Made by a program: the position numbers and the translations under genes. From NCBI GenBank assembly GCA_963796455.1, contig CAWCLO010000001.1, positions 359,372 through 423,371 on the forward strand: a DNA stretch of 64,000 nucleotides, given 5' to 3'. This document shows, one piece after another, positions 2,398 to 53,242 of this stretch. Origin of the DNA: Candidatus Sulfomarinibacteraceae bacterium. GTDB lineage: Bacteria; Acidobacteriota; Thermoanaerobaculia; Thermoanaerobaculales; Sulfomarinibacteraceae. Each line of letters starts with the position of its first letter. Position 1 is the stretch's first letter. A model generated the notes under the pieces. It did not search any database, was not told the origin of the DNA, and saw only the letters and a list, made by a program, of their open reading frames with translations.

Positions 2398-3432
2398 ATC
2401 CTCGGAAGATCCAATCCAGAAAGCAGATCGAGCGGCCTCTCACCCCCGATCCGGGTTTTCATTACGACCGGCGGCGCTCCCTTTGGAGCCTCCTCCATCC
2501 GGCCGATCACCATGGCACCGGCCCCGGCGGGGTCGGCGCGCATCGCCTGCAACGCGCGATCCACATCCTCGCTCGCGACCCACACCAACGCACGGCCCTC
2601 GCAGGCCAGGGCCAGCGGATCGAGCCCGAGGAGATCGCAGACCGCCGCGACGGTCTTCTGCACCGGTATCTGAGACTCTTCCAGAACCACCCGCGCACCA
2701 CTCCGTTCGGCGACCTCGTGGCTGACCGTCACGACCCCCCCACGGGTCGGGTCGTGCATGCTTCGAACCGCTGCACCGCTTGCCATCAGGTTTTCGACCA
2801 GCGACGTCAACGGACCACAATCGGACTCGAGCCCGGGAGCATCGAGCTGGTGCCGGTGCGCAAGCACCGTCGCTCCGTGGTCGCCGATCGGACCGGAAAC
2901 CAGGATCGCGTCTCCCGGTTGGATGTTGGTGTCCGAAATATCACGCCCCGGAGGCACGACACCGAGACCGGCGGTCACCGCGAAAATGCCGTCACCCTTG
3001 CCTCGCGGCACCACCTTGGTGTCTCCGGCAACTACGGCGATCCCAGCCTTTTCGGCGGCGGCTGCAGCACCCCGGACACAGGTCTCCAGGAGCACACCGT
3101 CGGCGCCCTCCTCGAGGATCAGGGCCCACGTCAGCCACAGGGGCTTGGCCCCACCCATGGCGAGATCGTTCGACCGTGCCGTAAATCGACAAACACCCCA
3201 GATCACCACCCGAAAAAACCGGTGGATCGACCACAAACGCATCGGTGGTCATGGCCGGTCGTCCCGGCGGCAGTTCCGGCAGCACCGCAGCGTCGGTCAA
3301 ATCGGCCAGGTGTTGATTGTGAAACGCCGGCAGGAAAAGCTCCTCAACCAGGCGCCGGGTCAGACGCCCTCCCCCACCGTGTGCCAGAAGGACCTTGTCG
3401 GGCGCCTTCACGATTGCCCCCCGCCTGCCCAC
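2391..3432 (-). pseudogene. hypE: hydrogenase maturation protein HypE, interrupted by an apparent +1 frameshift near 3168-3173
   Basis: ORFs 2992-3432 and 2391-3242 together give a full HypE. N-part: VLLAHGGGGRLTRRLVEELF...TTDAFVVDPPVFSGGDLG...GTV. C-part: NDLAMGGAKPLWLTWALILEEG... ending in the canonical PRIC. The frames differ by one extra base (acg gtc G aac gat ctc). Probable start is GTG 3411 (GTGA overlap with the hypD stop) or ATG 3432. This could be an assembly error. Confidence 0.8.
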
Positions 3433-4514
3433 CGCTCGTGGCGATACCAGGCGGCGCAGGTACCTTCGGAGGAGACCATGCAGGCCCCAATCGGCGTATC
3501 AGGATCGCAGCCCGCATCGAACAGTGGGCATTCCGGCGGGTCGATCACACCGCGCAAAACATCACCGCACGCGCAACCCACCGGTTCGTTCGGCGGCGGC
3601 AGTTCGACCTCGATCAAGGAGGCGTCGCGGTGCGCCCATTCCGAGCGCAGACCGAGCCCAGATCCCGGGACCATTCCAAAGCCCCGCCAGATCTCGTCCG
3701 ATGGTTCAAAATACCGATCCACCAGGTCCCGCGCATGGACATTGCCGTCGGGGGTCACGACCCGGCCGTAGACATTGCCGATGGATGCCTCGCCCTCTGC
3801 CACCTGGCGGATGAGAGCCACCACACCCTGGGCCACATCGGTAGGCAGGAAACCGGCAACCACACCCGACACGCCATAGTCCTCGGCGAGAAACTCGAAG
3901 AGCTTCCAACCCGTGATCACCGAAACGTGACCCGGCAGCAAAAAGCCATCCACATCCAGATCAGGATCGTCCACCAGCACCCGCATCACCTGCGGCATGG
4001 TTTTGTTCCCCGGCAGCAGGAGGAAATTCGGCACGCCGGTTCGTTCCGCCTCGTCGAGCGCGCCGCCGATGGTCGGAACGGTGGTCTCGAATCCAACCGC
4101 CAGGAAGATCACCCGGAGCGCCGGGTTTTCGCGAGCCAGCGCCACGGCGTCCCGTGGCGAGTAGACGATCTCGACGCGAGCGCCTTCCGCCCGAGCCATT
4201 TCCAGAGACATGGTGCTCGACGGAACGCGCATCAAATCGCCAAAGGTGCACAACACAGTGTCGGGCTGGGCCGCCAGGGCAAGCGCCCGATCGAGGTATT
4301 CAACCGGGGTGACGCAGACCGGACAGCCAGGTCCGGAAATCAGTCGCACCCGTTCCGGCATCAATCGCCGCAGACCCGCTCCGGCCACGCTGTGGGTATG
4401 GGTGCCACAGACTTCCATAAAGGTCACTCGGCGATCGAGTTGACGAGCCTGCTCGCGGAGGTCTGACAAAATCCCATCCATGACCTCCGGGTCGGAGAAG
4501 AGCCCGGTGCTCAC
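3408..4514 (-). CDS. hypD: hydrogenase maturation protein HypD
   Basis: 368 aa. FMEVCGTHTH and GPGCPVCVTP motifs. GTG start in a GTGA overlap with the hypC stop. Confidence 0.92.
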   Translation of the reverse strand: MSTGLFSDPEVMDGILSDLREQARQLDRRVTFMEVCGTHTHSVAGAGLRRLMPERVRLISGPGCPVCVTPVEYLDRALALAAQPDTVLCTFGDLMRVPSSTMSLEMARAEGARVEIVYSPRDAVALARENPALRVIFLAVGFETTVPTIGGALDEAERTGVPNFLLLPGNKTMPQVMRVLVDDPDLDVDGFLLPGHVSVITGWKLFEFLAEDYGVSGVVAGFLPTDVAQGVVALIRQVAEGEASIGNVYGRVVTPDGNVHARDLVDRYFEPSDEIWRGFGMVPGSGLGLRSEWAHRDASLIEVELPPPNEPVGCACGDVLRGVIDPPECPLFDAGCDPDTPIGACMVSSEGTCAAWYRHERWAGGGQS

Positions 4515-4824: not shown

Positions 4825-4916
4825 CGCTCTCGCTATCGGAATAGCTCTCGCTATCAATACAGCAAATCGAGACTGTCATTGCTCGATAGCGATACCGATA
4901 GCGATTGCGATAGCGA
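4825..4916. repeat. inverted word array (CGCTATCG...//...CGATAGCG) forming a long hairpin between hypF and hypC
   Basis: Left arm cgctctcgctatcggaatagctctcgctatca. Right arm gctcgatagcgataccgatagcgattgcgatagcgac. The same GCGATAGCG word recurs at 21155-21174 and 25129-25149. Confidence 0.7.
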
Positions 4917-8375: not shown

Positions 8376-8396
8376 CTGGACAGTATACCGAGCACG

Positions 8397-8452
8397 AAAG
8401 GGAGAAAGGGAGAAAGGGAGAAAGGGGGAAAGGGGGAAGGGGGGAAAGGGAG
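8397..8452. repeat. tandem 8-mer array (AAAGGGAG)x7, slightly degenerate
   Basis: Read directly. The same word array recurs at 9465-9503 and, reverse-complemented, at about 29398-29433. Confidence 0.9.
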
Positions 8453-8548
8453 ATCGCCAGTCGATCTGTCCGAGATTGGAGAACCAGGGTCCATATGGCA
8501 GAGGGGCGGAGGGGCAGAGGGGCTAGATGCTGGATGCTGGATGCTGGA

Positions 8549-9172
8549 TCACTCTTGTCCAAGATAAAGTCTCAGACAGCGATCAGGGACGGCGGCAGCG
8601 ATCAGCGTCAGCGACAGGGAACAGCGATCAGCGTTCAGCGTTCAGCGTCAGCGTCAGCGTCAGCGAACAGTAGTCAGCGTCACGTTTGATTGGTATGGAG
8701 CACTGAAATCAAGACTTTGGGTTGAGTAAACGCCATGTCATGGCACGGACTTGATCGAAGGCCTTCGTCGCTTCACCGGCTCCGTTCGGGCTGATCGCCT
8801 CGGCGTGGGCGAGGAGCTGCAAGTGGTTGTCGACCTCTTTGGCCGAGGCGTAGGCGATTCTCCAGTGGTTCGACCGGTCTCTACCGACTCGGCCGCCCAC
8901 CGGCTACCCCTTCCTTTGAACGATCCGGAGGTGGCCGCTTCGTCGCCTGTACTCCTGACCGCTGCCGCTGGATACTGACCGCCGTCCCTGACCGCTGTCT
9001 CTGTTCGCTGTTGCCTGTCGCTGCCGCTGGACACTGTCGCCGCCGCTGCAATTCGGACGCGGGCACGGGCACAGGCACGGGCAACCGCGAACCGGATATG
9101 CCGAAAACCAACCCATAAACCACGTGTTGTCATGTGGGAAACTCCAGGTGACGATCTATTTTGGACAGCGGT
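8549..9172. mobile_element. TIR-bounded four-helix-bundle element, copy A (deletion derivative)
   Basis: Left end CACTCTTGTCCAAGATAAAGTCTCAGACAG. Right end GACGATCTATTTTGGACAGCGGTG, its imperfect inverse. The interior has a CAGCG-rich arm, a truncated four-helix gene, a CGCTG-rich arm and a conserved ~125-nt module. Confidence 0.65.
8709..8900 (-). pseudogene. truncated four-helix-bundle protein (23S rRNA IVS / Avd-like), C-terminal half only
   Basis: 63-aa ORF GGRVGRDRSNHWRIAYASAKEVDNHLQLLAHAEAISPNGAGEATKAFDQVRAMTWRLLNPKS. It aligns to residues ~65-128 of the intact copy at 12547-12900. Confidence 0.75.
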
Positions 9173-9288
9173 GATGCTGGATGTTCGATCGAGCCCGAGC
9201 CCGTTGCCGTTGCTGAGCGGGGAAAGGGAGACCCGAACCGGAAGCGATGGACGTGACCGAATCTCCCTGAATCAGAGTGTCGCCTCCC

Positions 9289-9441: not shown

Positions 9442-9464
9442 CTTGAACGACAGTTCCGTTCCCG

Positions 9465-9503
9465 AAAGGGGAAAGGGAGAAAGGGAGAAAGGGAGAAAGG
9501 GAG
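9465..9503. repeat. tandem 8-mer array (AAAGGGAG)x5
   Basis: Read directly. It is a direct repeat of the array at 8397-8452. Confidence 0.9.
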
Positions 9504-9540
9504 AACCATACCGGAGACTTAGTTCGTGATAAGGGCGGGT

Positions 9541-9700
9541 CTCCTCTGCTCCTCTGCTCCTCTGCTCCTCTGCTCCTCTGCTCCTCTGCTCCTCTGCTCC
9601 TCTGCTCCTCTGCTCCTCTGCTCCTCTGCTCCTCTGCTCCTCTGCTCCTCTGCTCCTCTGCTCCTCTGCTCCTCTGCTCCTCTGCTCCTCTGCTCCTCTG
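9541..9700. repeat. perfect microsatellite (CTCCTCTG)x20
   Basis: 160 bp with no mismatch, ending 37 bp upstream of the ATG at 9738. A short copy of the same word lies at 21483-21498. Confidence 0.97.
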
Positions 9701-9737
9701 CGCGAGACTCGGGTGGGGTGTACAATGCCCGCTGTTT

Positions 9738-11255
9738 ATGACACTCCCACGCATCGTCATCACCGGCGCATCGGGCTTCATCGGCCGCAATCTTCTGCGA
9801 GACTTCAAGAACGATTTCAAAATCGTCGGTTTGGCCCGTCGTTCACAACTCCATTGCGGAGCGCCGATTCACAACAACATCACCTGGTATCAGGTCGACA
9901 TCGGCAACCGCGAACAACTTGCCACCGCATTCAAGTACATCCGCGAGTCGGGCGGAGCCGACTATGTGATCCACCTCGCCGCCCACTACGATTTCACCGG
10001 TGAGAACCATCCCGAGTATTGGCGGACCAATGTGGAAGGCATGCGCAACGTGCTGGAGGAGTGTCGCGGCCTCGATCTGAAGCGTTTCATCTTCAGTTCT
10101 TCGATCGCAGCCTGTGAATTTCCCAGAACCGGCGAAACGCTCAACGAAGAGAGTCCGCCCGATGGCGAACATGTTTATGCGGTGACCAAACGCATCGGCG
10201 AGGAGATGCTGGTCGAGTACGACGACATCCCGTCCTGCATCATCCGTCTCGCCGCGTTGTTCTCCGACTGGTGTGAATACGCTCCACTGTATATCTTTCT
10301 CGAGACCTGGCTTTCGGATGTGTGGAACAAGAACATCCTCGGTGGTCGAGGCACCACCGCCATCCCTTATATGCACGTCCGCGAGATGGGGCCCTTTCTC
10401 CGCCGTCTGATGGAGCGGGGAGATTCGATCGGGCAACGGGAAGTCCTTCTCGCCAGCCCCAACGAAACACTTTCCCACAAAGAGCTCTATGACCTGGCCA
10501 ACATCGATTATTTCGGCCAACGCCGGCGCCCGATCTTCATGCCCAAGGCCCTCGCCCAGATTGGTGTCTGGGGCCGCGATCTGATCGGTCGCCTGCTGGG
10601 TAACCGGCCCTTCGAACGCCCTTGGATGATTCAGTACCTGGACACCGATCTCGCTGTCGACACCAGCCGTACAAGCGAGCGTCTCGGGTGGAGACCGAGA
10701 AAACGCCTGCTTCTCCAGCGTCGGATGCCCTTCATGGTCGAATACAGAAAAACGAATCCCAACGAATGGCACCGTCTCAACCGCGCTGCCCTCAAAGAGG
10801 TTCATCTCCGCGACAATTTGCGGATCAACGGATTGCTCGAAGTGCACCTGGATTCGATCTGCACCGAATTTCTCGACCAGATGCAGTCTCCTGGTTCGGC
10901 GTCGCGTTTTCCGTCCTATCAGAATGTTGCCAGGGACCGCCTCGAGTGGCGTTTCATCATCCTGCTACGCCATCTTCAGAGCTCGATCCGAACCCACGAC
11001 CGCGGTCTCTTTACGACCTACTGCAGAGACCTGGCGGAAAAACGGCTGATGCAGGGCTTCGGGGTGCGCGAAGTGGTCGGTGCACTGCTGACGATGAATT
11101 CCATTTGCGTCGACACGCTGCGATCGGACCCCGAGGGCGAAGACCTCGGCACGGCGATCCACGACTACCTCTCGATGACCGTCCAGTTCGGTTGTGATCA
11201 GATCCTGGAGATCTATGAAGAGGTTGGTGGCGAAGAGATCGACGAAGACTTTTGA
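9738..11255 (+). CDS. NAD-dependent epimerase/dehydratase (extended SDR) with ~170-aa C-terminal extension
   Basis: 505 aa. Rossmann motif VITGASGFIGRNLL. Catalytic YAVTK (YxxxK). I do not recognise the helical C-terminal region. Confidence 0.8.
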   Translation: MTLPRIVITGASGFIGRNLLRDFKNDFKIVGLARRSQLHCGAPIHNNITWYQVDIGNREQLATAFKYIRESGGADYVIHLAAHYDFTGENHPEYWRTNVEGMRNVLEECRGLDLKRFIFSSSIAACEFPRTGETLNEESPPDGEHVYAVTKRIGEEMLVEYDDIPSCIIRLAALFSDWCEYAPLYIFLETWLSDVWNKNILGGRGTTAIPYMHVREMGPFLRRLMERGDSIGQREVLLASPNETLSHKELYDLANIDYFGQRRRPIFMPKALAQIGVWGRDLIGRLLGNRPFERPWMIQYLDTDLAVDTSRTSERLGWRPRKRLLLQRRMPFMVEYRKTNPNEWHRLNRAALKEVHLRDNLRINGLLEVHLDSICTEFLDQMQSPGSASRFPSYQNVARDRLEWRFIILLRHLQSSIRTHDRGLFTTYCRDLAEKRLMQGFGVREVVGALLTMNSICVDTLRSDPEGEDLGTAIHDYLSMTVQFGCDQILEIYEEVGGEEIDEDF

Positions 11256-11310
11256 GTTCGGAATTCGGAGTTCGGAGTTCGTAGTTCGGAATTCGGAGTT
11301 CGGAGTTCGG
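11254..11310. repeat. tandem 8-mer array (AGTTCGGA)x7, slightly degenerate
   Basis: Read directly. It begins inside the stop codon of the SDR gene. Confidence 0.9.
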
Positions 11311-12308: not shown

Positions 12309-12421
12309 CCGATGATTGTGCCAGAGCGGTGGGGTGATGGATAGTGCAGATATTCGAGTTCTCGGATCGGATGATCGATCCTCGGCGCTGGATACTGGAT
12401 GCTGGATGCTCGTTTCTGGAT

Positions 12422-13208
12422 CACCCTTGTCCAAGACAGAGTCTCAGACAGCAACCGGGGACAGGGACGGGGAACGGCGGACAGCGTCAGCGAACGGTTG
12501 TCAGGGTCAGCGATCAGCTATCAACAGCAGCGACAGACAGCAGCGCTCACCTTTTCGGGTTCAAGAGCCGCCAGGTCATCGCACGGACCTGATCGAACGC
12601 CTTCATCGCTTCACTGGCTCCGTTCGGGCTGATCGCCCCGGTGTGGGCGAGGAGTTCCAAGTGGCTGTCGACCTCTTTGGCCGAGGCGTAGGCGATTCTC
12701 CAGTGGTTCAACCGGTCTCTACCGAAACGGCCGTGGCCTTCTGCAAGGTTCGCAGGGACTGAACTCGCCGATCGGACGACCTGATCGGCTATGGATTTCA
12801 GCGGAGCCGGAACCCTCATCACGAGTTTGATCGCGATGCCTGCTGCTTCGAGTGCTTTCGAGTGGGCAACGAGGTTGGTGTTCGTGGCGGCGTTGGACAT
12901 GGTCACCTCCGGGTCGTTCATGCCCATACCCACAAGCCGGTGTGGTGGCCGATGTCAAGGATGCCCTGCACCCTGCCTGTCCTTGACATCGGCCGCCCAC
13001 CGGCTACCCCTTCTGTTGAACGACCCGGTGGTGGCCACTTCGTCGCATGTACTCCTGATCGCTGCCGCTGAACACTGATCGCTGATTGCTGTTCTCTGTC
13101 GCTGCTTCCTGTCGCTGCCGCTGGACACTGTCGCTGTCGCTGATTCCTGTTGACTGCCCCTGCCCCTGCCTCTGAACGCTATCCGAGACCCTTTCTCGGA
13201 CAAGAATG
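12422..13208. mobile_element. TIR-bounded four-helix-bundle element, copy B (intact gene)
   Basis: Left end CACCCTTGTCCAAGACAGAGTCTCAGACAG. Right end GCTATCCGAGACCCTTTCTCGGACAAGAATG, its inverse. CAGCG/CGCTG arms flank a complete four-helix gene. It lies between the hybC terminator and hybD. Confidence 0.65.
12547..12900 (-). CDS. four-helix-bundle protein (23S rRNA intervening-sequence protein / DGR Avd-like family)
   Basis: 117 aa from ATG 12900 (GGAGGTG 5 nt upstream). MSNAATNTNLVAHSKALEAAGIAIKLV...SASSVPANLAEGHGRF...HWRIAYASAKEVDSHLELL is the family pattern as I recall it. Confidence 0.75.
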   Translation of the reverse strand: MSNAATNTNLVAHSKALEAAGIAIKLVMRVPAPLKSIADQVVRSASSVPANLAEGHGRFGRDRLNHWRIAYASAKEVDSHLELLAHTGAISPNGASEAMKAFDQVRAMTWRLLNPKR

Positions 13209-13239
13209 ATGCCGCATCCAGTATCCGGCATCCAGCATC

Positions 13240-13267
13240 AAAAAAAGCCGGGGGCGAAGCCCCCGGC
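13240..13267 (-). terminator. rho-independent terminator after the hydrogenase large subunit
   Basis: Minus strand reads GCCGGGGGCTTCGCCCCCGGC followed by TTTTTTT, 22 nt after the stop at 13290. Confidence 0.8.
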
Positions 13268-24780: not shown

Positions 24781-25195
24781 TAGTAACTCGATACTCGATG
24801 CTCGATACCGGATCGATTCGCGTTCCGGAGAAACCGCAGATCACGCAGATGAACGCAGATCACGCATCGCAATTGCCAGCGATAGAAAACGTCCCGATGG
24901 GTCAATTCGATGGCAAACCCCACACTCCCACGTCACAACCAACAAGACACCAAGGAACACCGTTGAGTTCATCGTGCCCGACAAGAGAGCTCTGTCAGAA
25001 TCGGAGTCCGTTCTTCATCGGAAATCGATAAGAGAATTTGAGGTCAGTATGTACTTGGCGATTTCTTGGTGTTCTTGGTGTCTAGGTGGTGAATGATTCG
25101 CCACCATCCAGTGGGAACTCCCTGGATAGAGCGATAGCGATTGCGACGGTCAATCTGCGTTCATCTGTGTGATCTGCGGTAACTCCGGTTGACCC
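24781..25195. repeat. nested inverted-repeat mosaic (CTCGATR words, PE2 motif pair, CACCAAGRA words, GCGATAGCG word)
   Basis: PE2 GGAGAAACCGCAGATCACGCAGATGAACGCAGATCACGC at 24827-24865, and its inverse at 25153-25186. Inner inverted pair GACACCAAGGAACACC / GGTGTTCTTGGTGTC. Confidence 0.75.
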
Positions 25196-25218
25196 AGCTA
25201 CCGGACCGGACGACAGGC

Positions 25219-25248
25219 AAAAAAACCGCCCCGGTTGAACCGGGGCGG
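25219..25248 (-). terminator. rho-independent terminator after the His/Asp-rich protein gene
   Basis: Minus strand reads CCGCCCCGGTTCAACCGGGGCGG followed by T7. Confidence 0.85.
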
Positions 25249-25275
25249 TGTGCAGTCGGAGTGAATCTCGTGCGA

Positions 25276-26118
25276 TCAGTCTTCTTCGTGCGCCTTGACG
25301 ATTCGTTCCTTGTGAATCTCGACCAGGCGAACGGCCACTTCACCGTCGACCTTTTCCATCACGCAACCCGTCACAGGATCGATATAGCTCTCGAGCAACG
25401 CGTCATCCTTTTTGACGGTCAGCATCGAGCCCGTCTCTTCACAACGGTAGTGGGCGAAATCGCCGCCACCCACATGCACGCCCGATTTGATCATCACCGG
25501 ATGGGCGCCGTGACCGGCGCTCTTCCATTTGTAGATCTTTTTGCCATCCTCGGTGGTGTCGACATCGAAGTCGTCGCCGAATTTCTCGCGCATGGCGTCA
25601 ATATCGATCTCGCCCTCGTCACCCTTCATGATGATGACATCGTGGTCACCCGGGTGTCCGTCACTGATAAAGATGGCATCACCTTCGCCCTCGTAATCAC
25701 CGAGGACATCCACAACCACTTCGTCGCCATCGCCCCGTTTGATGATCTTGACTCGTTTGACGCCGTCGCCCATTTCTTCGTCATCCGTCACCCACACGTG
25801 ATGGGCATCTCCCTCGCCAAAGTGCTCCATGAGCATGGCGTGGCCGTCGTGACCGTCGTGGACCAGGGTCAATTCGTCGCCGACGCGACGCACCGTGAAG
25901 GGATGTCCGCCGACCTCGTAATCGAGTTGCTGGCCGTCCGCGAGGTCATCGAGCGCGATGACTTCGGTCTCGCCGTTGACGTCGATGGTCAGTTCCTGAC
26001 CGTCCTCGTTGCGCACCTCGACCTTCATGACCTTCTCTTCAGCAAACACCCACACGGCGCCGACGATCAGAACCAGCGCTGCCGCCACCAGATATTTCGT
26101 CCAGTTCTCTCGATTCAT
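25276..26118 (-). CDS. secreted or anchored acidic, His-rich protein (possible metal-binding envelope protein)
   Basis: 280 aa. N-terminal hydrophobic segment YLVAAALVLIVGAVWVFA. Many H/D/E clusters (HDGHDGHAMLMEHFGEGDAHH). Transcribed from the sigma54 promoter at 26187-26203. Confidence 0.65.
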   Translation of the reverse strand: MNRENWTKYLVAAALVLIVGAVWVFAEEKVMKVEVRNEDGQELTIDVNGETEVIALDDLADGQQLDYEVGGHPFTVRRVGDELTLVHDGHDGHAMLMEHFGEGDAHHVWVTDDEEMGDGVKRVKIIKRGDGDEVVVDVLGDYEGEGDAIFISDGHPGDHDVIIMKGDEGEIDIDAMREKFGDDFDVDTTEDGKKIYKWKSAGHGAHPVMIKSGVHVGGGDFAHYRCEETGSMLTVKKDDALLESYIDPVTGCVMEKVDGEVAVRLVEIHKERIVKAHEED

Positions 26119-26186
26119 GCAATCCTCCGCTTATATTTTTCGGCCGCCAGATGAGGTCCCCGGCCTTTTTCTTCGTCCTTCAAGAG

Positions 26187-29196: not shown

Positions 29197-29471
29197 GAAT
29201 CGCTCCTTGAGGGAGTATACGCACCGTTCCGGCGTTCTCCGCACGAAGATGAAGCAAGGGTCATGCCATCTATATGAACGGGAGTGACGGAACCTGGGGG
29301 AATGGGAGGCCATGGATCAGCAACGCGGGAATGCCTGGTTCACATCGAACGTCGTCTCGTGCTGAAGATCAGAAGTCGGGAGAGAACCAACGTGTGGTCG
29401 CCCTTTCTCCCTTTCTCCCTCTCTCCCTTTCCTTCGTTCTGCGCCGGGCGCAGCAATGAGGGCGAAAACAA

Positions 29472-31396: not shown

Positions 31397-31511
31397 GAGG
31401 GCCCGGTCGCTCGATGCTCGATGCTCGATTCTGGATGCTGGATCGTGTCGCGTTTCGGAGAAACCGCAGATAGCGCCGATGAACGCAGATCAGGCATCCA
31501 GCATCCAGTAT

Positions 31512-32237
31512 CACTCTTGTCCAAAACAGTGTCTCGGACAGGGTTCAGGGACAGCGACGGAGAACGGTAGACAGCGGCAGCGAACAGTTGTCGGCGGCAG
31601 CGACAGGGTCCAGCGTCAGCGACAGGCAGCAGCGAACAGGGACAGGGAACAGCGGTCAGTGTTCAGTGTTCAGCGACGGAGCGCAGCGGCAGCAGTCTGG
31701 AATTCAGGCGACGCAGTGGCCACCTCCGGGTCGTTCAACAGAAGGGGTAGCCGGTGGGCGGCCGAGTTGGTAGAGACCGGTCGAATCACTGGTGAATCGC
31801 CTACGCCTGGGCGAAAGAGGTCGACAGCCACTTGCAGCTCCTCGCCCACGCCGGGGCTATCAGCCCGAACGGAGCCAGTGAAGCGATGAATGCCTTCGAT
31901 CAGGTCCGTGCCATGACGTGGCGTTTACTCAACCCAAAATCTTGATTTCAGGGCTTCATACCAGTCAAACATGACGCTGCCTCCTGTTCGCTGACGCTGA
32001 ACACTGATCGCTGTTCGCTGTTCGCTGTCGCTGCTCACTGTCGCTGCTCACTGTCGCTGTCCCTGTTCGCTGTTGCCTGTCGCTGACGCTGGACACTGTC
32101 GCTGCCGCTGTAATTCGGACGCGGACGCGGACACGGACACGGGCAACCGAGAACCGGATATGCCAAAAATCAACCTGTGAACCTCGTGGTGTCAGGCGGG
32201 CAACTTCACCTGACAATCTGTTTTGGACAACAGCGGT
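31512..32237. mobile_element. TIR-bounded four-helix-bundle element, copy C (deletion derivative, cargo inverted)
   Basis: Left end CACTCTTGTCCAAAACAGTGTCTCGGACAG. Right end CTGACAATCTGTTTTGGACAACAGCGGT. It has the same arms and 125-nt module as copy A, but the gene is on the plus strand. Confidence 0.65.
31754..31945 (+). pseudogene. truncated four-helix-bundle gene with in-frame stop
   Basis: GGRVGRDRSNHW*IAYAWAKEVDSHLQLLAHAGAISPNGASEAMNAFDQVRAMTWRLLNPKS. TGA at 31793-31795 replaces the Arg codon of copy A. Confidence 0.75.
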
Positions 32238-33845: not shown

Positions 33846-33930
33846 GGCTTGGGGCTTGGGGCTTGGGGCTTGAGGGGGTTGGGGCTTGGGGCTTTGGGGC
33901 TTGGGGCTTGGGGCTTGGGGTTGGGGCTTC
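33846..33930. repeat. tandem 8-mer array (GGGGCTTG)x~10
   Basis: Read directly. When translated it gives the spurious GLGLGAWGL N-terminal extension of ORF 33825. Confidence 0.9.
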
Positions 33931-33960: not shown

Positions 33961-34007
33961 AGCCTCAGCCTCAGGTCCCAGGTCCCAGGTCACCGGTCTC
34001 AGGTCTC
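33961..34007. repeat. tandem 6-7-mer array (AGCCTC / AGGTCYC)
   Basis: agcctcagcctcaggtcccaggtcccaggtcaccggtctcaggtctc. Confidence 0.85.
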
Positions 34008-34088
34008 AAGCCCCCGTATCAGCTACAATGTCGACGTACGCAGTCGAATATCGGAATCGTCGATCGACCCGAGGAGGATACTCCGCCA

Positions 34089-36974: not shown

Positions 36975-37037
36975 CTGCGCTCATCGCACTATGACGCAAC
37001 AAAAATGATGCAACCACAGGGTCTTGGAGGCCGCACC

Positions 37038-40000
37038 ATGAGACGCATTCTTAGTTTCATTTTCCTTCTCACGCTCATTTCCGCACCTGCCATCGTCGGC
37101 GCTCAGCAGGCTGGCGACAACATTAATGTCCTACCGTTGGTTCCGAACGTCGATTCGTCCGACCCAGGCTATGATCCCGATTGGTTTCTGAAGGGTGACG
37201 GCTACCTACAGCGTCAGCTGGAGCCGACAATCGCCGCATCGACCCGCAACCCGGACCACCTGCTCGCGTTCTTCAACGATTACAGGGCGGTGGATGTGGG
37301 TGACGACATCGGACTCGGCGAAGGCGAAATCGGATCGGCCGCCCTCAAGACCCTCAACCTCATGCTGGCTTCGGTGCCATGGCTGCAAATTCCAGACCTT
37401 GGTATCACGATGATTCGCCCGCAGCCGATGGCGGCGTCCGAAGCATGGGTGGGTATGAGTCGATCTTATGATGGCGGCCTGACCTGGAGTGGCGGCTTCT
37501 TGCCCGGCGCACCCTTCGACGGCTCCCCCGCATCGCTCGATTCTCCCGTCTATGGCCTCGAGGCGGCCACCGATCCGGTGACCGTCTGCGGTCCGTGCGG
37601 CCAATTCTATACTGTCTTCGTCGCCTTCACTCGCGGCGGCCAGAGCAAGCTCGCGGTCGCGCGTTATGAGGACCTCAACAATGACCCCGGCGGCGACACC
37701 CTGGTGTACAAGGGCACGACCGTTGTCGACTCTGGAGCCAACGCGAATTTCGGGCATTTCCTCGACAAGCCCCATATCGCCATTGATGTCTGGCGCAATG
37801 AATCATCAAAAGCGGGAATTGAAAAGAAGAAAAAGCCGAAACCCTCGGAAGACAACGACGATCCCTGCGCGCATCGCGTTTACGTGAGCTACAGCACCTT
37901 CACCGGAAAACCGAAACCCAACAAATTCCAGAGCAAACTCTACGTTGCGACGTCGGAGGATGGTGGCGAGACTTTCAACAGGACAAAAATCAACAAGAAC
38001 TTCGGTCAGAACCAGGGATCGGCCCTCGCTGTCGATCCACGCGAAGGAACTCCGACGACAACCGGGGGCGGAACCCTCTATGCGTTCTGGCGTCATTTCA
38101 ACGGTCCTGACAGCATCGTCATGACCAAATCGCTCGATTTCGGCGGTTCGTGGAGCAGACCGGAGCAGATCATCGGCAGCACGCCGATGGCGCCATTCGA
38201 TCAGCCGACGATTTCGACCCAGGCCGTCTACGATTTCGGTTTGTTCGACCCCATCACCGGTTTGCCCGAAGTTGCTTTTCGTTCGAACGGATTCCCCACC
38301 GCCACCGTCGCGACCGACCCCCAAGGTGATGCAACCGTATTTGTAGGTTGGCAGGAGCGGGTTGGCGGTGACGGCTACCCGCTCGAAAACGGAACGCCCC
38401 GGATCGTGCTGATGCGCTCCGACGACGACGGCGATTCGTGGACGGACATCGAAGGCAACCCCGGTCAGCGGAAAGCCGTCGATATCGGCTGGCGCGACCT
38501 CGAGAGTGATCCAAGTGCTCCCGAGCCAGGATTTGGGACTGTGCCTCTCGAGCGCCCCTCGGGACCCCAGATCCAACCCGCCCTCTCATTTGCCGGCGGG
38601 CGATTGATGATGGTGTACTCAGAGTCCCGCGGTCGGATCGCCAACTACGGCAACCCTGATCTTGAAGAAATCCTGACGTCGCAGTTCAACCCGGACGCAG
38701 ACATCGATTCGCAAACCGGTTTCATCAGCGGCTACGATCGACTGATGGATCATCGCGCCGCGCTGCTCGACCCCGCGACCGGTGAACTGTTGTCGACGGT
38801 GCAGGTTTCGCGCTATCCCTTGAGGGCAGGTTCAGACCTTGCCGACGGCGAGGACTATGAGGACGTCGCGCCGATCAACCCGCCGTGCTCGCCGGACTAT
38901 GACGCATACTTCAACGCGGGTGAACTCAACCCCTGCGTGCGCCAACTCAACCGCGTCAACGCAGTGACCTCGGCCGCCGGAACCTCTCCATTTGTCGGGG
39001 ACTACCCGGGGATCCATCCCTTCGTCCAGTTCGTGACCGACTCCGAAGGCAACTGGCGGTGGGCGACCGATCCCGATGACCTCACAACCCGCGGTTTCCA
39101 CACCATCTGGGCCGACAATCGCCACCTGATTCCGCCGCAAAACCCGTCACCTGGAAGTCCATGGGTCGAATGGCAGGACTATCCCAACTATGACGCACCC
39201 GGGTCAGGCGATCTTTCCTGTGCCAACCCGGGATCGCGCAACACCGATGTGTTGACCTCGAGGGTTGATGCCGAGCTGGTCATCAATTCGCCGACGACCT
39301 TCAAGGCGATCGGCGCCACCGGGGCTAGCTTTCCGTTTTCTATCGGCAACAAGACGGGCGAAACCAGAACCTACCAGATCAGCATCGAACCGGATGATGG
39401 CAATGCCTCATTCCTGTCGCGCTCGGTGGTGACCACGGCCTCGGTCGAGATCTTTCCCTTCTCGAGCACCTCGCAGGTGGTCTATGTTTCGGGGCCGACG
39501 ACCGACCCCATCAAGGTCACTGTCCAGGAGACCGGCGGTTGCGGCAGCGATTGCCAGAGCGGCACCATCGTCTTCAACGCCCACCAGAGCATGGCCTCGG
39601 AACAACTCGCTTCGGAGGAGTTCTTCAACCCGACGGTCACGCCCGACGCGTTCGTCATCAATCAGAATCTGGAAAACGCTTTCGTGATCAACCAGGGTGC
39701 TGAAAACGCATTCGTCATCAATCCAACAGTTGACAACGCCTTCGTCATCAACGGCGGCACGGAGAATGCGTTCGTTATCAATGCATTTGTCATCAACGCA
39801 TTCGTCATCAATGCATTTGTCATCAACAGCGGCCTCCCGGCAAAGGCAGGGGAAGAGCCCGAGTACTACGATATCCACAACATCATCGACACAACCTGGA
39901 CGGTGACTCCAGGTGAGAGCACCGATGCCTCGAGCTTTCTGCCAATCATCAATATCGACAAGGCGGAGCAGTTCCTCGACAAGTACGTCTTCCAACTCAT

Positions 40001-41444
40001 CGTCCACAAGGGCGCGCTCTACGGTTCCCCGAGTTTGGAGGGTTGCGACTCAACCAATGTGAACCAGCCGCAGATCCTCTCGACCTTTGCGCAGGGCCCG
40101 GGCACCAACCCTGCCGACGCCTTTGTCATCAACCCGGCGCCAAAAAATGCCTTCGTCATCAACCAGGGATTTCCCGGCGATGCCTTTGTCATCAACTCGA
40201 CATTTACCGTCGCACCATCCGACGACGGCCCGGACAACTCAAAGAACGGCTCCCTGAGCAACGACGGCACGCTCAAAGCTCCGCGCGCGCCGGACACCGT
40301 CAACGTCACCCTGCGGGCCTATCAGATCGTGCCTGACGAAGAGTTGGGTGAGTTCCGCTATAACCCGTTCCCCGCGGACGACCCGAACAATCCGAACCCA
40401 GGCACGGCCGGCGATCGCGCATCCTTCGCCGCATCCTCACACAACTGCGACACCCTGGATCCCTTGTCAGAGTGTTTCGAGTTCAACGCACCGGACCTCG
40501 TGCCCATCGACGTTGATCCAACCGAAATCCTACCGACTCTGGTCGGCGAAAGCTTCGACTTTCCGTCCTGGACCCTGCTCAACCAGGGAACGACGGATGG
40601 CAACGCCGAGAACGACGATCTTCGTCATGGCTTCTATCTCTGTCCGCGCTGGGTTGTGGCAGATGCTCCGGAGGATCTGACGCTCGACCTTTCGCCGTGC
40701 ACACAGTTCATTGACGAAGGAGAGATCCTGTTCACCACCGACAACTCCCTCCCGCCTGCGGGTGAAGATGATTTCGATGCAACCACGTTGAACATCCCGG
40801 AAGGAACCCTGCCGGGTCTCTACGACGTGGTGCTCTACGTAGACGATCTCTTCCAGGTCTCAGAGTTCATCGAAGTCAACAATTACGCATCGGTACCCAT
40901 CATCGTCATCGACGAGTTGCTCGAGAACGGCGGTTTCGAGACGCCGGACGTGGCCGCCGGAGCCTGGGCCCTCTTCGAAAACGGGACGGATGGGCTCGAT
41001 TGGAGCTTCGAGTGGGTGAATTGCGGTGGCTGCGAAACCGATCCACTGCTCGAGATTCAGAGCAGCGGCGTGGTGATCACCACACCGGACGGCGGTCAGG
41101 TCGCCGAACTCGACTCCGACTTCGGCGGTGCGGAACCGGGCAGCCAGACGAGTCTGCGCCTGTACCGCGATTTCGACACCTGCGAGGGAGTCACCTACAC
41201 ATTCGACTATTCGTGGGCAAAACGCACCGGCTCGGATTTGATGACCGTCTCATGGGACGGATTTGTCTTCGCGACACACGGTGCAGGCGCTCCGACCCTG
41301 CAATGGAATGTGGAGAGCTGGGAACTCGATGGCGACGGATCGACCATTCGTCTCGAGTTCGTTGAGACCGGACCGGCCGATTCGTTGGGCATGCTGCTCG
41401 ATGCCGTGAGCCTGATCGGACCGCTTTGCCCGAACGTTGAATAA
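37038..41444 (+). CDS. giant secreted protein: BNR/Asp-box (sialidase-like propeller) + AFVIN repeat region + C-terminal DUF642/CBM-like domain
   Basis: Signal peptide MRRILSFIFLLTLISAPAIVGA after GGAGG. Asp-boxes SYDGGLTWS, SEDGGETFN, SLDFGGSWS and SDDDGDSWT. 11 AFVIN motifs. C-terminal LLENGGFETP... domain. Confidence 0.8.
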   Translation: MRRILSFIFLLTLISAPAIVGAQQAGDNINVLPLVPNVDSSDPGYDPDWFLKGDGYLQRQLEPTIAASTRNPDHLLAFFNDYRAVDVGDDIGLGEGEIGSAALKTLNLMLASVPWLQIPDLGITMIRPQPMAASEAWVGMSRSYDGGLTWSGGFLPGAPFDGSPASLDSPVYGLEAATDPVTVCGPCGQFYTVFVAFTRGGQSKLAVARYEDLNNDPGGDTLVYKGTTVVDSGANANFGHFLDKPHIAIDVWRNESSKAGIEKKKKPKPSEDNDDPCAHRVYVSYSTFTGKPKPNKFQSKLYVATSEDGGETFNRTKINKNFGQNQGSALAVDPREGTPTTTGGGTLYAFWRHFNGPDSIVMTKSLDFGGSWSRPEQIIGSTPMAPFDQPTISTQAVYDFGLFDPITGLPEVAFRSNGFPTATVATDPQGDATVFVGWQERVGGDGYPLENGTPRIVLMRSDDDGDSWTDIEGNPGQRKAVDIGWRDLESDPSAPEPGFGTVPLERPSGPQIQPALSFAGGRLMMVYSESRGRIANYGNPDLEEILTSQFNPDADIDSQTGFISGYDRLMDHRAALLDPATGELLSTVQVSRYPLRAGSDLADGEDYEDVAPINPPCSPDYDAYFNAGELNPCVRQLNRVNAVTSAAGTSPFVGDYPGIHPFVQFVTDSEGNWRWATDPDDLTTRGFHTIWADNRHLIPPQNPSPGSPWVEWQDYPNYDAPGSGDLSCANPGSRNTDVLTSRVDAELVINSPTTFKAIGATGASFPFSIGNKTGETRTYQISIEPDDGNASFLSRSVVTTASVEIFPFSSTSQVVYVSGPTTDPIKVTVQETGGCGSDCQSGTIVFNAHQSMASEQLASEEFFNPTVTPDAFVINQNLENAFVINQGAENAFVINPTVDNAFVINGGTENAFVINAFVINAFVINAFVINSGLPAKAGEEPEYYDIHNIIDTTWTVTPGESTDASSFLPIINIDKAEQFLDKYVFQLIVHKGALYGSPSLEGCDSTNVNQPQILSTFAQGPGTNPADAFVINPAPKNAFVINQGFPGDAFVINSTFTVAPSDDGPDNSKNGSLSNDGTLKAPRAPDTVNVTLRAYQIVPDEELGEFRYNPFPADDPNNPNPGTAGDRASFAASSHNCDTLDPLSECFEFNAPDLVPIDVDPTEILPTLVGESFDFPSWTLLNQGTTDGNAENDDLRHGFYLCPRWVVADAPEDLTLDLSPCTQFIDEGEILFTTDNSLPPAGEDDFDATTLNIPEGTLPGLYDVVLYVDDLFQVSEFIEVNNYASVPIIVIDELLENGGFETPDVAAGAWALFENGTDGLDWSFEWVNCGGCETDPLLEIQSSGVVITTPDGGQVAELDSDFGGAEPGSQTSLRLYRDFDTCEGVTYTFDYSWAKRTGSDLMTVSWDGFVFATHGAGAPTLQWNVESWELDGDGSTIRLEFVETGPADSLGMLLDAVSLIGPLCPNVE
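39645..39827 (+). repeat. in-frame AFVIN repeat cluster (8 units; the last 4 are a 4 x 15-bp tandem array with only synonymous differences)
   Basis: DAFVINQNLENAFVINQGAENAFVINPTVDNAFVINGGTENAFVINAFVINAFVINAFVIN. A second cluster of 3 units lies at 40116-40196. Confidence 0.95.
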
Positions 41445-45168: not shown

Positions 45169-45912
45169 CTACTCCCCAAGCACACAGCGAATGCCGGGCG
45201 CGCATACCGTCGGAATGCCTTCGACAATGAAACCGCAACAGAACGCGTGACCTTCGACCTCGTTCCAACAGGGATCGCTACAGCACTCCCCATCGGGCGC
45301 CCACGGCAGGCAACACGCCGAGTCGCACGGTTCCGTACAGTCGTCACACGGAATCACATGAAACAGGGTCGAGTCTGACCAGGAATCTCCGGACCTGGGC
45401 GACGAAAGATCAGCCGTGACTCGATGAGCGCCGGGTCCCTCGGCAAAGTCCATCGCCAGCGCGATCGTAAACGACGTGACCGGCAGCAGATCACCCGGCA
45501 TCGGCGACACCACCGACCACTCAAAGCGCGAAGGATCGACGCTCCAGCAGTCAACAGTTTTGACACGCCAGCGAAGTTTCGTTCCTCTCCTCGTTTGAAT
45601 CCTTTTTCTCTTGAGATCGACAACGCAGCTCCCCATTTCTTCAAAGACGGTCATTTCCTCGAATCCCTGGTCCCAGAAGATTTCCACACGAGCCGGGCCC
45701 TTTGCCGAGAACTTCCGATTCATCTTGAAGAGAGCGGTTACCGGAACATCCTGGAGGTCGGTAAGGACCTCATCCATCACAGGCTCGATGATTTGAACTT
45801 TGGCTTTGATCTGTCGGCCGCACTTTTCCGGAGCCTGCTCGATTTCACCCGCGACGGTGAAACCCGAAATCGCAACAACCAAAACCACAATGAACGCAGA
45901 TTTCGACATCAC
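45169..45912 (-). CDS. secreted protein with Cys-rich C-terminus, function unknown
   Basis: 247 aa. Signal peptide MMSKSAFIVVLVVAISGFTVAG. The last ~60 aa contain 13 Cys (CDDCTEPCDSACC...CCSDPC...FCCG). It lies 90 nt downstream of the FG-GAP/LamG gene. Confidence 0.65.
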   Translation of the reverse strand: MMSKSAFIVVLVVAISGFTVAGEIEQAPEKCGRQIKAKVQIIEPVMDEVLTDLQDVPVTALFKMNRKFSAKGPARVEIFWDQGFEEMTVFEEMGSCVVDLKRKRIQTRRGTKLRWRVKTVDCWSVDPSRFEWSVVSPMPGDLLPVTSFTIALAMDFAEGPGAHRVTADLSSPRSGDSWSDSTLFHVIPCDDCTEPCDSACCLPWAPDGECCSDPCWNEVEGHAFCCGFIVEGIPTVCAPGIRCVLGE

Positions 45913-52515: not shown

Positions 52516-52970
52516 CACTCTTGTCCAAGACAGAGTCTCGGATAGCGCGCAGGGACAGCGGCAGAGAACGGTCGACGGAGTCAGCGGCAGCGTTCAGTGT
52601 TCAGGTTCAGCGATCAGCGGCCGGGACAGTGAACAGCACTCATTTCTTCGGGGCTCCGGCCTTGGTGGTGCGGCCGTCTCGGCCGCACGGTGTGCAGGCG
52701 AGACGCCTACACCACAACGGCTGTTCCTTATGTTGAAAGACTCGGAGGTGGCCATACCGCCGCATGAACTCCAGACTGCTGCCGCTGATCGCTGAACACT
52801 GATCCCTGCTCACTGTCGCTGCCGCTGCCGCTGGACACTGTCGCTGACGCTGCAATTCGGGATCGGGTACGGGTACGGGCCAATCGCGAACCGGATATGC
52901 CAAAAACCAACCCGTAAACCTCGTGTTGTCAGGCGGGTAACTTCATGACAATCTGTGTTGGACAGCTGTG
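52516..52970. mobile_element. TIR-bounded element, copy D (no four-helix gene; alternative hairpin cargo)
   Basis: Left end CACTCTTGTCCAAGACAGAGTCTCGGATAG. Right end CATGACAATCTGTGTTGGACAGCTGTG. It keeps the arms, a leader remnant (TTGAAAGACTCGGAGGTGGCC) and the 125-nt module. The cargo is replaced by two GC hairpins (GCGGCCGTCTCGGCCGC; GTGCAGGCGAGACGCCTACAC). Confidence 0.6.
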
Positions 52971-53073
52971 ATCGATTATCCAGTATCCAGTATCTGAATC
53001 GAACCCGGGCGCTTGACACGTTTCCCCACTCGCTGGATACTCGCGTTAGTTCTTTGGCGTACTGACGCTATTG

Positions 53074-53160
53074 CGTTTCCGTGGGGGTGCCCTTCGTCAA
53101 ATGGGCTGAGATCACACCCCTCGAACCTGATCCGGGTCATGCCGGCGGAGGAAATGGAGA
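53074..53160 (+). promoter_or_regulatory. TPP (THI-box) riboswitch
   Basis: UUUCCGUGGGGGUGCCCUUCGUCAAAUGGGCUGAGAUCACACCCCUCGAACCUGAUCCGGGUCAUGCCGGCGGAGGAAAUGG. This matches the thiM-type aptamer core (GGGGUGC, CUGAGA, ACCUGAUCYGGNUNAUGCCRGCG). P1 is UUUCC/GGAAA. It lies 83 nt upstream of the receptor ATG. Confidence 0.88.
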
Positions 53161-53242
53161 CGCCCACCCCCTTGCCGTGGCGCATTTGGAGCGGGCATCC
53201 CTTTTGTACCGGCCCACCCAAAGTATTCGGAGCTACGGACCC

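Follow-up and report, generated by a model that had tools for sequence, protein, structure and literature searches.

What moves a DNA cassette that encodes no transposase? The question is raised by 64,000 nucleotides (nt) of a Candidatus Sulfomarinibacteraceae bacterium from the Acidobacteriota (assembly GCA_963796455.1, contig CAWCLO010000001.1, positions 359,372 to 423,371), which we call the window. It has four similar intergenic segments. An initial annotation, made from the letters alone, took these for stem-loop cassettes like the intervening sequences (IVSs) of 23S rRNA, one of them with an intact gene for an Avd-like four-helix-bundle protein, and it implied that no known mobilising system was at work. 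This interpretation was half right. It is supported as to the cargo, which is IVS-like, but not as to the vehicle, which is derived from an insertion sequence (IS) of the IS4 family.

The four segments are genuine copies of a transposase-less mobile cassette, in which IS4-family ends enclose an IVS-type cargo that replaces the transposase. The IS ends around the stem-loop cassettes are what makes them multiply here. More specifically, it is likely that the copies are non-autonomous IS4-family derivatives (IS4Sa-like, with termini CA......T and a parent of about 1.43-1.44 kb), that is, a mobile insertion cassette that is moved in trans.

Four copies of one cassette

Alignment confirms that the four segments have one architecture. 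All of them have the left end CACYCTTGTCCAA..GTCTC, arms of CAGCG and CGCTG repeats, and a related core, and their CAC...GTG termini (copies 1 to 4 in Table 1) are within 1-2 nt of where they were first placed. Every copy starts with ATCACYCTTGTCCAARAYARWGTCTC, and the core of the motif is 20 nt. In the 64-kb window, the left-end motif CTTGTCCAARAYARWGTCTC has four exact occurrences and two inverted ones with three mismatches, while 0.01 are expected from shuffles. The arms hold up as well: the density of CAGCG and CGCTG reaches 5 per 100 nt only at the four copies, and the whole of copy 2 folds as a single stem (-427 kcal/mol, z = -14). A right module of about 106 nt terminates copies 1, 3, and 4 and is missing from copy 2. 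Three of the four copies are decayed. Copies 1 and 3 have one internal deletion junction in common, and copy 3 has its centre flipped with respect to copy 1 (8596-9046 matches 32059-31594, 85.5%), while the outer ends stay direct. Arrays of CTGGATG/CTCGATG heptamers adjoin all four copies.

As had been proposed, the copies are not in rRNA operons: each is intergenic and lies between protein-coding genes. The neighbours of copy 2 were also named correctly, as its site is between the gene for the large subunit of a NiFe-hydrogenase and the gene for a HycI-type maturation protease. Rfam identified no rRNA in the window (its sole match is a thiamine pyrophosphate (TPP) riboswitch) and no family for the elements, at either gathering or E-value thresholds. 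Pfam identified no reverse transcriptase, transposase, or integrase in 30 large open reading frames (ORFs) of the window that were scanned, nor does any copy contain one. We also considered whether the right module is a structured RNA and rejected this, given a consensus energy of -3.4 kcal/mol with an unfavourable covariation term; it is an IS subterminal region.

A mobile family with empty sites

We scanned a collection with one genome per species, from which the window's own genome is absent, for the left-end pattern. There were 33 loci, about 25 of them in one metagenome-assembled genome (MAG) from the Thermoanaerobaculales, Ca. Sulfomarinibacteraceae CAVZOK01. This MAG has at least 22 delimited copies (548-1051 bp), each of which runs from ATCACTCTTGTCCAA to TTGGACAGCAGTGAT, with near-identical interiors and unrelated exteriors. 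A further MAG also has the element, and the pattern had no match in viral contigs. All 29 delimited copies are at most 1051 bp, and the four-helix-bundle gene is their only conserved ORF. The family is mobile, and the claim of a multi-copy, transposase-less family with terminal inverted repeats stands.

The site of copy 2 is empty in relatives. When metagenomes were scanned with the protease, 35 orthologous loci came up, of which 24 hold both genes, and in every one of these two-gene contigs the spacer between hydrogenase and protease genes is 120-290 nt and contains neither the element nor a four-helix-bundle gene. The spacer in the window is 982 nt. The presence/absence variation that a mobile unit should have is thus there. 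Besides the terminator, the empty spacers hold two heptamer arrays in inverted orientation with a centre of 35-55 nt between them, and five of the contigs share the GGATGCT type of the window. Because like arrays are present in the empty orthologous spacers, the arrays predate the element, which inserted between them. For the same reason we rejected the idea that the heptamer arrays are a part or a product of the element.

These spacers are variable in their own right. Across about 17 related contigs (L036-L067), there is always an inverted heptamer-array pair, sometimes around the terminator. The heptamer varies by lineage (GGATGCT, ATTTCGG, or AATTAGG/AATTCGG) and the centres are unrelated; the arrays turn over and their position is kept. 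The G-rich motif GGGTGGGTGG often borders them.

Each of three different deletion derivatives without the gene was found at two loci, where its junctions are the same (copies 1 and 3, L004a and L012, and L013 and L033), so the gene is not needed in cis. The smallest derivatives, L023 and L031 (153 and 258 bp), have little beyond the ends. L031 is on a contig that was binned as Ilumatobacteraceae (Actinomycetota): there, at 994-1247, a gene-less derivative of 254 bp has kept the ends and the right module of the family; it lies outside arrays and has a duplication of 8/9. This is either horizontal spread beyond the Acidobacteriota or a mis-binned contig. Among the Acidobacteriota copies, we could not detect any orientation bias relative to neighbouring genes with our rough gene calls, which were based on GC content at third codon positions.

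Ends and target duplications of the IS4 family

The same ends bound transposase genes. In locus L011, from a Thermoanaerobaculales MAG, the left end is CACTCTTGTCCAAGACAAGGTCTCAGATAG (shared form CACTCTTGTCCAAGACA(R)GGTCTCAGA), and it is 116 nt upstream of a transposase ORF, with no arms following it. This ORF matches DUF4372 (Pfam, 2.1e-26) and the IS4-family transposase model NF033592 (3.8e-23, which is below the cut-off as the ORF is truncated). An IS3-family element (HTH_21 and rve domains; L011 935-2061) interrupts the IS4-family transposase gene. The homologues of the ORF are proteins with DUF4372 and DDE_Tnp_1 domains (PF14294 and PF01609 on P0121, P0128, and P0238). In L087, a transposase that is 85% identical to that of L011 is preceded by a matching left end. 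L088 is a full IS of 1442 bp, whose 3' non-coding end is ATTTGGACAGGC, about 100 nt, and then TCTTGGACAGCAGTGAT. Here the right repeat occurs twice, internally and at the terminus, with a module in between, which is exactly the layout of the right module of the cassettes, and the cassette modules are 70-78% identical to L088 over about 110 nt (z of 3.4-10 relative to shuffles). Finally, L094 is an IS of 1431 bp in a contig of 6.3 Mb, with CAC...GTG termini and a perfect 9-bp duplication (AAGACATTA). The left end is therefore common to L011, L087, and L088, and the right end with its subterminal module is common to L088 and L094. The implied absence of a known mobilising system is thus not supported: their termini and right subterminal module are those of an IS4-family IS with ends CACTSTTGT and a 9-bp duplication. 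On ends, duplication, and size, this DUF4372-type parent fits the values for the IS4Sa subgroup (ends CA------T, duplication of 8-10 bp, and 1150-1750 bp; Table 1 of "IS4 family goes genomic", PMC2266710).

Two of these transposase genes have an in-frame TAG at conserved glutamine positions (L087 2429-2431, LRI*IWTA; L088 2455-2457, DRC*IELFFK), and many of the transposase homologues in databases stop at about 320 amino acids. Such TAG codons may reflect pseudogenisation (CAG to TAG) or be stops that are recoded or read through.

The cassettes are also flanked by 9-bp repeats. At least 8 of the 9 positions match in 18 of the 29 delimited cassettes (12 are perfect), as compared to 17.5% of mismatched left/right pairs. 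The duplicated 9-mers have the palindromic consensus ATSCWGSAT, which recurs once per period in (GGATGCW)n arrays, and this explains the apparent affinity for heptamer arrays. Furthermore, the flanks come out direct when the insertion is in one arm of an array palindrome and inverted when it is at the centre, which explains all four combinations of flank orientations. Some duplications can be seen apart from the arrays: that of L031 is outside any array, and the perfect 9/9 repeat of L007 and L014 extends past a short array into non-array sequence. We had also considered duplications of 5 bp and 7 bp, with boundaries at ATCAC or TCAC, and dropped them, as the autonomous L094 fixes the boundaries at CAC...GTG and the duplication at 9 bp.

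A passenger gene under purifying selection

The sole ORF of copy 2 (12547-12900, minus strand) encodes 117 amino acids behind the ribosome-binding site GGAGGTGA. It matches PF05635 (1.5e-15, 57.7 bits with a cut-off of 33.8, residues 13-109) and TIGR02436 (2.8e-16, 59.7 bits with a cut-off of 24), so the gene was rightly described as an intact member of this family. As for "Avd-like", this holds at the level of the family (PF05635) and not for a diversity-generating retroelement (DGR), as there is no reverse transcriptase and no pair of template and variable repeats. By sequence, the nearest solved relatives are 2GSC and 2RLD, which are pentameric four-helix bundles and not DGR proteins. The protein of the window (in forms of 117 or 126 amino acids) and two top homologues had no exact match in database records. 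Public data does contain over 120 proteins at 80-94% identity, and many of these are on contigs of 0.5-1.3 kb, which fits an assembly-breaking repeat.

The four-helix-bundle gene is under purifying selection, with a dN/dS of about 0.12. The coding sequence is intact at 117 amino acids in 17 of the 18 cases that are readable from the start motif. The dN/dS is 0.11-0.15 between the window gene and the MAG copies (dS of about 0.68) and 0.13-0.22 between cassette subfamilies of the MAG, and dS is 0.04 among copies within a genome. Also, when the window and the related MAG are aligned, the stem of the core hairpin has a compensatory change (ATGTCA/TGACAT versus GTGTCA/TGACAC). This hairpin is a putative promoter/operator-like palindrome of the cargo, and the inverted leader copy upstream may sequester the ribosome-binding site in read-through transcripts. 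Our best guess about the protein, and the part of this account that we would defend least, is that it binds nucleic acid of its own cassette, which is structured and made of repeats.

The same cargo in other phyla

The cargo has two complementary arms of degenerate CAGCGNN repeats and a core palindrome, in which the gene leader and its inverted copy surround a hairpin. We sampled homologous genes in annotated plasmids of four further phyla (nine cyanobacteria, Gemmatirosa, Riemerella, and Azospirillum). All 12 have tandem arrays of 7-8 nt within about 100 nt on both sides and no IS ends. The two arrays are reverse complements in nine cases (scores of 29-61, with the largest shuffle scores at 23-33), direct in two, and unrelated in one. 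In Azospirillum lipoferum (L080), a 23S rRNA gene contains the cassette (Rfam LSU, 814 bits), which is thus a genuine IVS, with arms of GAGGACG/GATGACA repeats. The arms-plus-gene architecture of our copies matches this IVS, and there is good support for describing the cargo as a stem-loop cassette of the IVS type.

The cyanobacterial cassettes are in sense orientation in co-directional gene strings (cas6-4HB-cas4, cas10-4HB-cmr3, and TraM-4HB, where 4HB is the four-helix-bundle gene). In Nostoc, C057 is empty and C052 is filled at the same site, with flanks that are 96% identical; similarly, Picosynechococcus PCC 7002 is empty and PCC 7003 is filled, with flanks that are 93% identical. Both of these cassettes are without IS ends. 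At the same Tra site, N. punctiforme plasmid pNPUN01 (L086, about 560-790) has (AGGCAGG)n, a centre of 150 nt, and (CCTGCCT)n, but no gene, so array palindromes with other centres are also insertion polymorphisms. Of the roughly nine inverted array pairs in 50 kb of a Nostoc plasmid, only the four-helix-bundle pair encloses an annotated gene. It appears that array-armed four-helix-bundle cassettes in other phyla have a mobility of their own.

The insertions in cas operons are in Pseudanabaena (L076, between cas6 and cas4) and in Picosynechococcus (L078, between cas10/cmr2 and cmr3). They may explain why "23S rRNA IVP" is named as a CRISPR-linked domain in large surveys (figure legend of PMC10910872).

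How the cassette would move, and the alternatives

The cassettes keep about 30 nt of the IS left end and, in copies 1, 3, and 4, a right subterminal module of about 110 nt that is bounded by the internal and the terminal right inverted repeats. The IVS-type cargo (gene, leader, hairpin, and two complementary tandem-repeat arms) takes the place of the transposase gene. In the mechanism that we propose, an IS4-family DDE transposase that is encoded elsewhere in the genome would bind the ends and move the cassette, probably by cut-and-paste as in other IS4-family elements, and the partner IS would have a DUF4372/DDE_Tnp_1 gene between CACTSTTGTCC and GGACAGCAGTG. The 9-bp duplication would be made at the palindromic target ATSCWGSAT, with heptamer arrays that pre-exist in the intergenic spacers of this lineage acting as landing pads. 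The sequences show that recombination between the arms can flip the centre, as in copy 3, and that deletions at microhomologies give gene-less copies that are still mobile. RNase III excises the IVSs of 23S rRNA without re-ligation, and likewise the arms may fold the transcript into a long duplex that RNase III would cut out without joining the ends. This step, together with the role of the protein, is the one of which we are least sure. If it is right, then the cassette would be tolerated in operons and in rRNA because RNase III would remove the arm duplex. The protein is presumably retained by selection for some function.

Several observations weigh against this mechanism. First, copy 2 has a second, inverted left-type end instead of the right module. 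Second, 11 of the 29 copies have no clear duplication, and where the copy is within arrays, the 9-bp repeat is not fully separable from the array periodicity. Third, L088 has no target duplication, and the transposase frames of L011, L087, L088, and L094 are all interrupted. Fourth, neither the 64-kb window nor a sample of about 200 kb of CAVZOK01 had a transposase-bearing partner; in the collection scan, the pattern would likewise overlook IS copies whose subterminal bases have diverged. We encountered the partner IS only in metagenomes and in other representatives of the order, so we infer its presence in the source genome. Finally, passive hitch-hiking does not explain why the passenger gene is under purifying selection across subfamilies.

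This last point also speaks for the alternative that fares best, although we consider it very unlikely: that the cassette is a self-mobilising IVS-type element, whose Avd-like protein is the mobility factor (for example with a host reverse transcriptase acting on RNA excised by RNase III, or with host recombination enzymes), and that its IS-like ends are incidental. Besides the selection on the gene and its intactness in 17 of 18 readable coding sequences, one could cite the array-flanked genes in four other phyla, 12 of 12 without IS ends, and the plasmids of Nostoc and Picosynechococcus, where such a site is empty in one relative and filled in another. The mobile-IVS hypothesis itself dates from 1993, when it was proposed for Leptospira (as reported in PMC4990558). 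However, gene-less derivatives have moved, derivatives of 153-258 nt consist of little more than ends, the boundaries and 9-bp duplications are exactly as in IS4-family relatives, and none of the 30 large window ORFs that we scanned is a reverse transcriptase. Also, we know of no catalytic motif in the four-helix-bundle fold.

Still less likely, in our view, is that these are repeats selected by the host, akin to repetitive extragenic palindromes or bacterial interspersed mosaic elements (REP/BIME). The stem-loops would then be signals for processing or stabilising transcripts, the gene would encode their binding protein, and the multiplicity would be functional. All of the positions are intergenic (including one within a hydrogenase operon), relatives have array palindromes in the same spacer, and the gene is conserved, all of which is in its favour. 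But the site is empty in 24 relatives, the near-identical copies within a genome point to a recent burst (dS of 0.04), many copies have decayed (three of four in the window), and our rough gene calls show the copies in no consistent orientation to their neighbours. Copying by homologous recombination or gene conversion via the flanking heptamer arrays, with no transposition, is the most improbable of the three: nearly every copy is within arrays that recur at many loci, and arm-to-arm recombination clearly occurs (the inversion in copy 3), yet the boundaries are fixed at CAC...GTG whatever the heptamer type or orientation, the flanking arrays are just 20-40 nt and differ between loci, and the repeats of L031 (8/9) and L007/L014 (9/9) lie outside or beyond arrays.

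Feature coordinates and other features of the window

Table 1. Coordinates of the cassettes and their parts in the window; parts are given for copy 2.
Feature	Position	Strand	Evidence or remark
Copy 2, complete cassette with intact gene	12422..13208	.	termini CAC...(A)TG; spacer 982 nt vs 120-290 nt in 24 related contigs
Left IS end (left inverted repeat, IRL) CACCCTTGTCCAAGACAGAGTCTCAGACAG	12422..12451	+	matching 28-30 nt precede IS4-family transposase gene in L011 and L087; motif statistics
Left arm, degenerate CAGCGNN tandem array	12452..12546	+	
117-aa four-helix-bundle gene, PF05635 / TIGR02436	12547..12900	-	dN/dS 0.11-0.15 vs copies in related MAG
Core palindrome	12900..13037	.	leader GAACGACCCGGAGGTGA at 12900-12920, inverted copy at 13017-13037, hairpin between
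Hairpin in core palindrome	12944-12997		18-bp stem, TTGACA on both strands
Right arm, CGCTG-rich array complementary to left arm	13050..13160	+	
Second, inverted left-type end, CATCATTCTTGTCCGAGAAAGGGTCTCGGA on minus strand	13179..13208	-	
Flanking heptamer array (GCTGGAT)n	12387..12421	+	pre-existing target, outside cassette; like arrays in empty spacers L040, L048, L050, L053, L055
Flanking inverse heptamer array (GCATCCA)n	13209..13239	+	
Terminator of hydrogenase large-subunit gene	13240-13267		directly after (GCATCCA)n array
Copy 1	8550..9173	.	5' half of gene and hairpin deleted; right module ~9068-9173; perfect 9-bp duplication ATGCTGGAT
Copy 3	31512..32235	.	deletion junction as in copy 1; centre inverted between arms; right module ~32130-32235
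Copy 4	52516..52970	.	without gene; unrelated hairpin at centre; right module ~52867-52970

The window has many other intergenic tandem arrays of 6-8 nt: GAAAGGGA (x7 and x5), GGCAGAGG, CTCCTCTG (x20), GAGTTCG (x8), GGCTTGG (x12), and CTCAGGT. These are at 8396-8453, 8497-8523, 9464-9505, 9541-9701, 11254-11310, 33846-33929, 33970-34008, 4884-4916, and 29401-29431. Such a load resembles the genome habit of short tandemly repeated repetitive (STRR) sequences, here in an acidobacterium. On a Nostoc plasmid (L079), array pairs in inverted orientation are built of the same octamer, CTCCTCTG/GCAGAGGA. A unit of 82 nt is present at 24787-24868 and 31417-31498 (85% identity) and has CTCGATG-type heptamers followed by CGCGTTYCGGAGAAACCGCAGAT and CGCAGAT repeats. 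Its second occurrence is flanked by inverted heptamer arrays and lies shortly before copy 3. The unit resembles a separate small dispersed "centre" unit.

The TPP riboswitch (69 bits, 53073-53170) is upstream of a gene for a TonB-dependent receptor (53081-55678) and not of a thiamine biosynthesis gene. Five large ORFs have no Pfam match at E <= 1e-5 (37005-41444, 61658-63925, 2718-4466, 25189-26154, and 45169-45912); one of these is 1479 amino acids long.

Relation to known systems

For MIC231 and mobile insertion cassettes in general, PMC2266710 cites Chen et al. 1999 and De Palmenaer et al. 2004. So this kind of mobile unit, which the initial annotation took to be undescribed, was already known: in MIC231, IS231/IS4-family ends surround a passenger gene and the unit is moved in trans. 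Our family is like MIC231 in that a single passenger gene, and no transposase, lies between IS4-family inverted repeats, in that there are several copies, and in that the target duplication is that of the parent IS. It differs in that the parent IS belongs to another subgroup (DUF4372-type, with IS4Sa-like ends), the cargo is an IVS-type stem-loop, far more copies are present (a relative has at least 22 in its genome), and the passenger is under purifying selection across subfamilies; the mobilisation in trans is what we infer here. The class of mobile insertion cassettes is thus not new. What is new, within the searchable literature, is an IVS-type cargo within IS4 ends and the flanking of such genes by arrays across phyla; that literature had nothing that links four-helix-bundle or S23 genes to inverted tandem arrays, heptamer repeats, or IS ends.

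The IVSs of 23S rRNA that contain an S23p/PF05635 ORF (in Leptospira, Coxiella, and Azospirillum lipoferum L080) likewise have the ORF within the complementary arms of a long stem, and the arms of L080 are also made of repeats of about 7 nt. In contrast, our copies are not in rRNA (helix 9, 25, or 45) and they have IS ends and target duplications, and their excision by RNase III is only presumed. The Avd proteins of DGRs are of the same superfamily, and PF05635 is the commonest Pfam family that is linked to DGRs (PMC10053308), but our gene has no reverse transcriptase or template/variable repeats nearby. Miniature inverted-repeat transposable elements are similarly non-autonomous, multi-copy, and bounded by terminal inverted repeats, and L023 and L031 (153-258 nt) fit their definition, whereas most of our copies are 0.5-1 kb and coding. 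Finally, the STRR heptamer arrays of cyanobacteria, Beggiatoaceae, and Geobacter (PMC4679880, PMC2700814) are also intergenic arrays of 7-8 nt, often in inverted pairs; in the searchable papers they are not tied to four-helix-bundle genes or to IS targeting.

What the cassettes may mean

One broader idea goes beyond the IS4-derived cassettes, and we put it forward tentatively, as we think it is rather unlikely to be right. An inverted pair of short tandem repeats with a four-helix-bundle gene would be a widespread, IS-independent selfish cassette, found in at least five phyla and in operons as well as in helix 45 of 23S rRNA; its Avd-like pentameric protein would act on its own arms and on genomic heptamer arrays, and the Acidobacteriota family would be one such cassette that was captured by IS4 ends. 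If this is true, then it links the origin of IVSs, the scattered PF05635 paralogues (including their apparent association with CRISPR), and STRR-type heptamer arrays. In any case, the inverted flanking arrays of 7-8 nt are a lead both on heptamer arrays and on the four-helix-bundle genes of cas and conjugation operons. A practical consequence is that the cassettes break short-read assemblies.

For us, the most interesting loose end is that a passively mobilised cassette retains its gene. A passenger gene that is kept by purifying selection over dozens of non-autonomous copies calls for a function of the four-helix-bundle protein outside of DGRs. And since 1993 it has been suggested, without evidence, that the IVSs of 23S rRNA with their conserved ORF are relics of mobile elements. 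Here the same arms-plus-gene unit is seen in the course of multiplying. Its ends are defined, its target is duplicated, there are empty sites for comparison, and the transposase family can be named, so that the mobility of IVSs becomes open to experiment.

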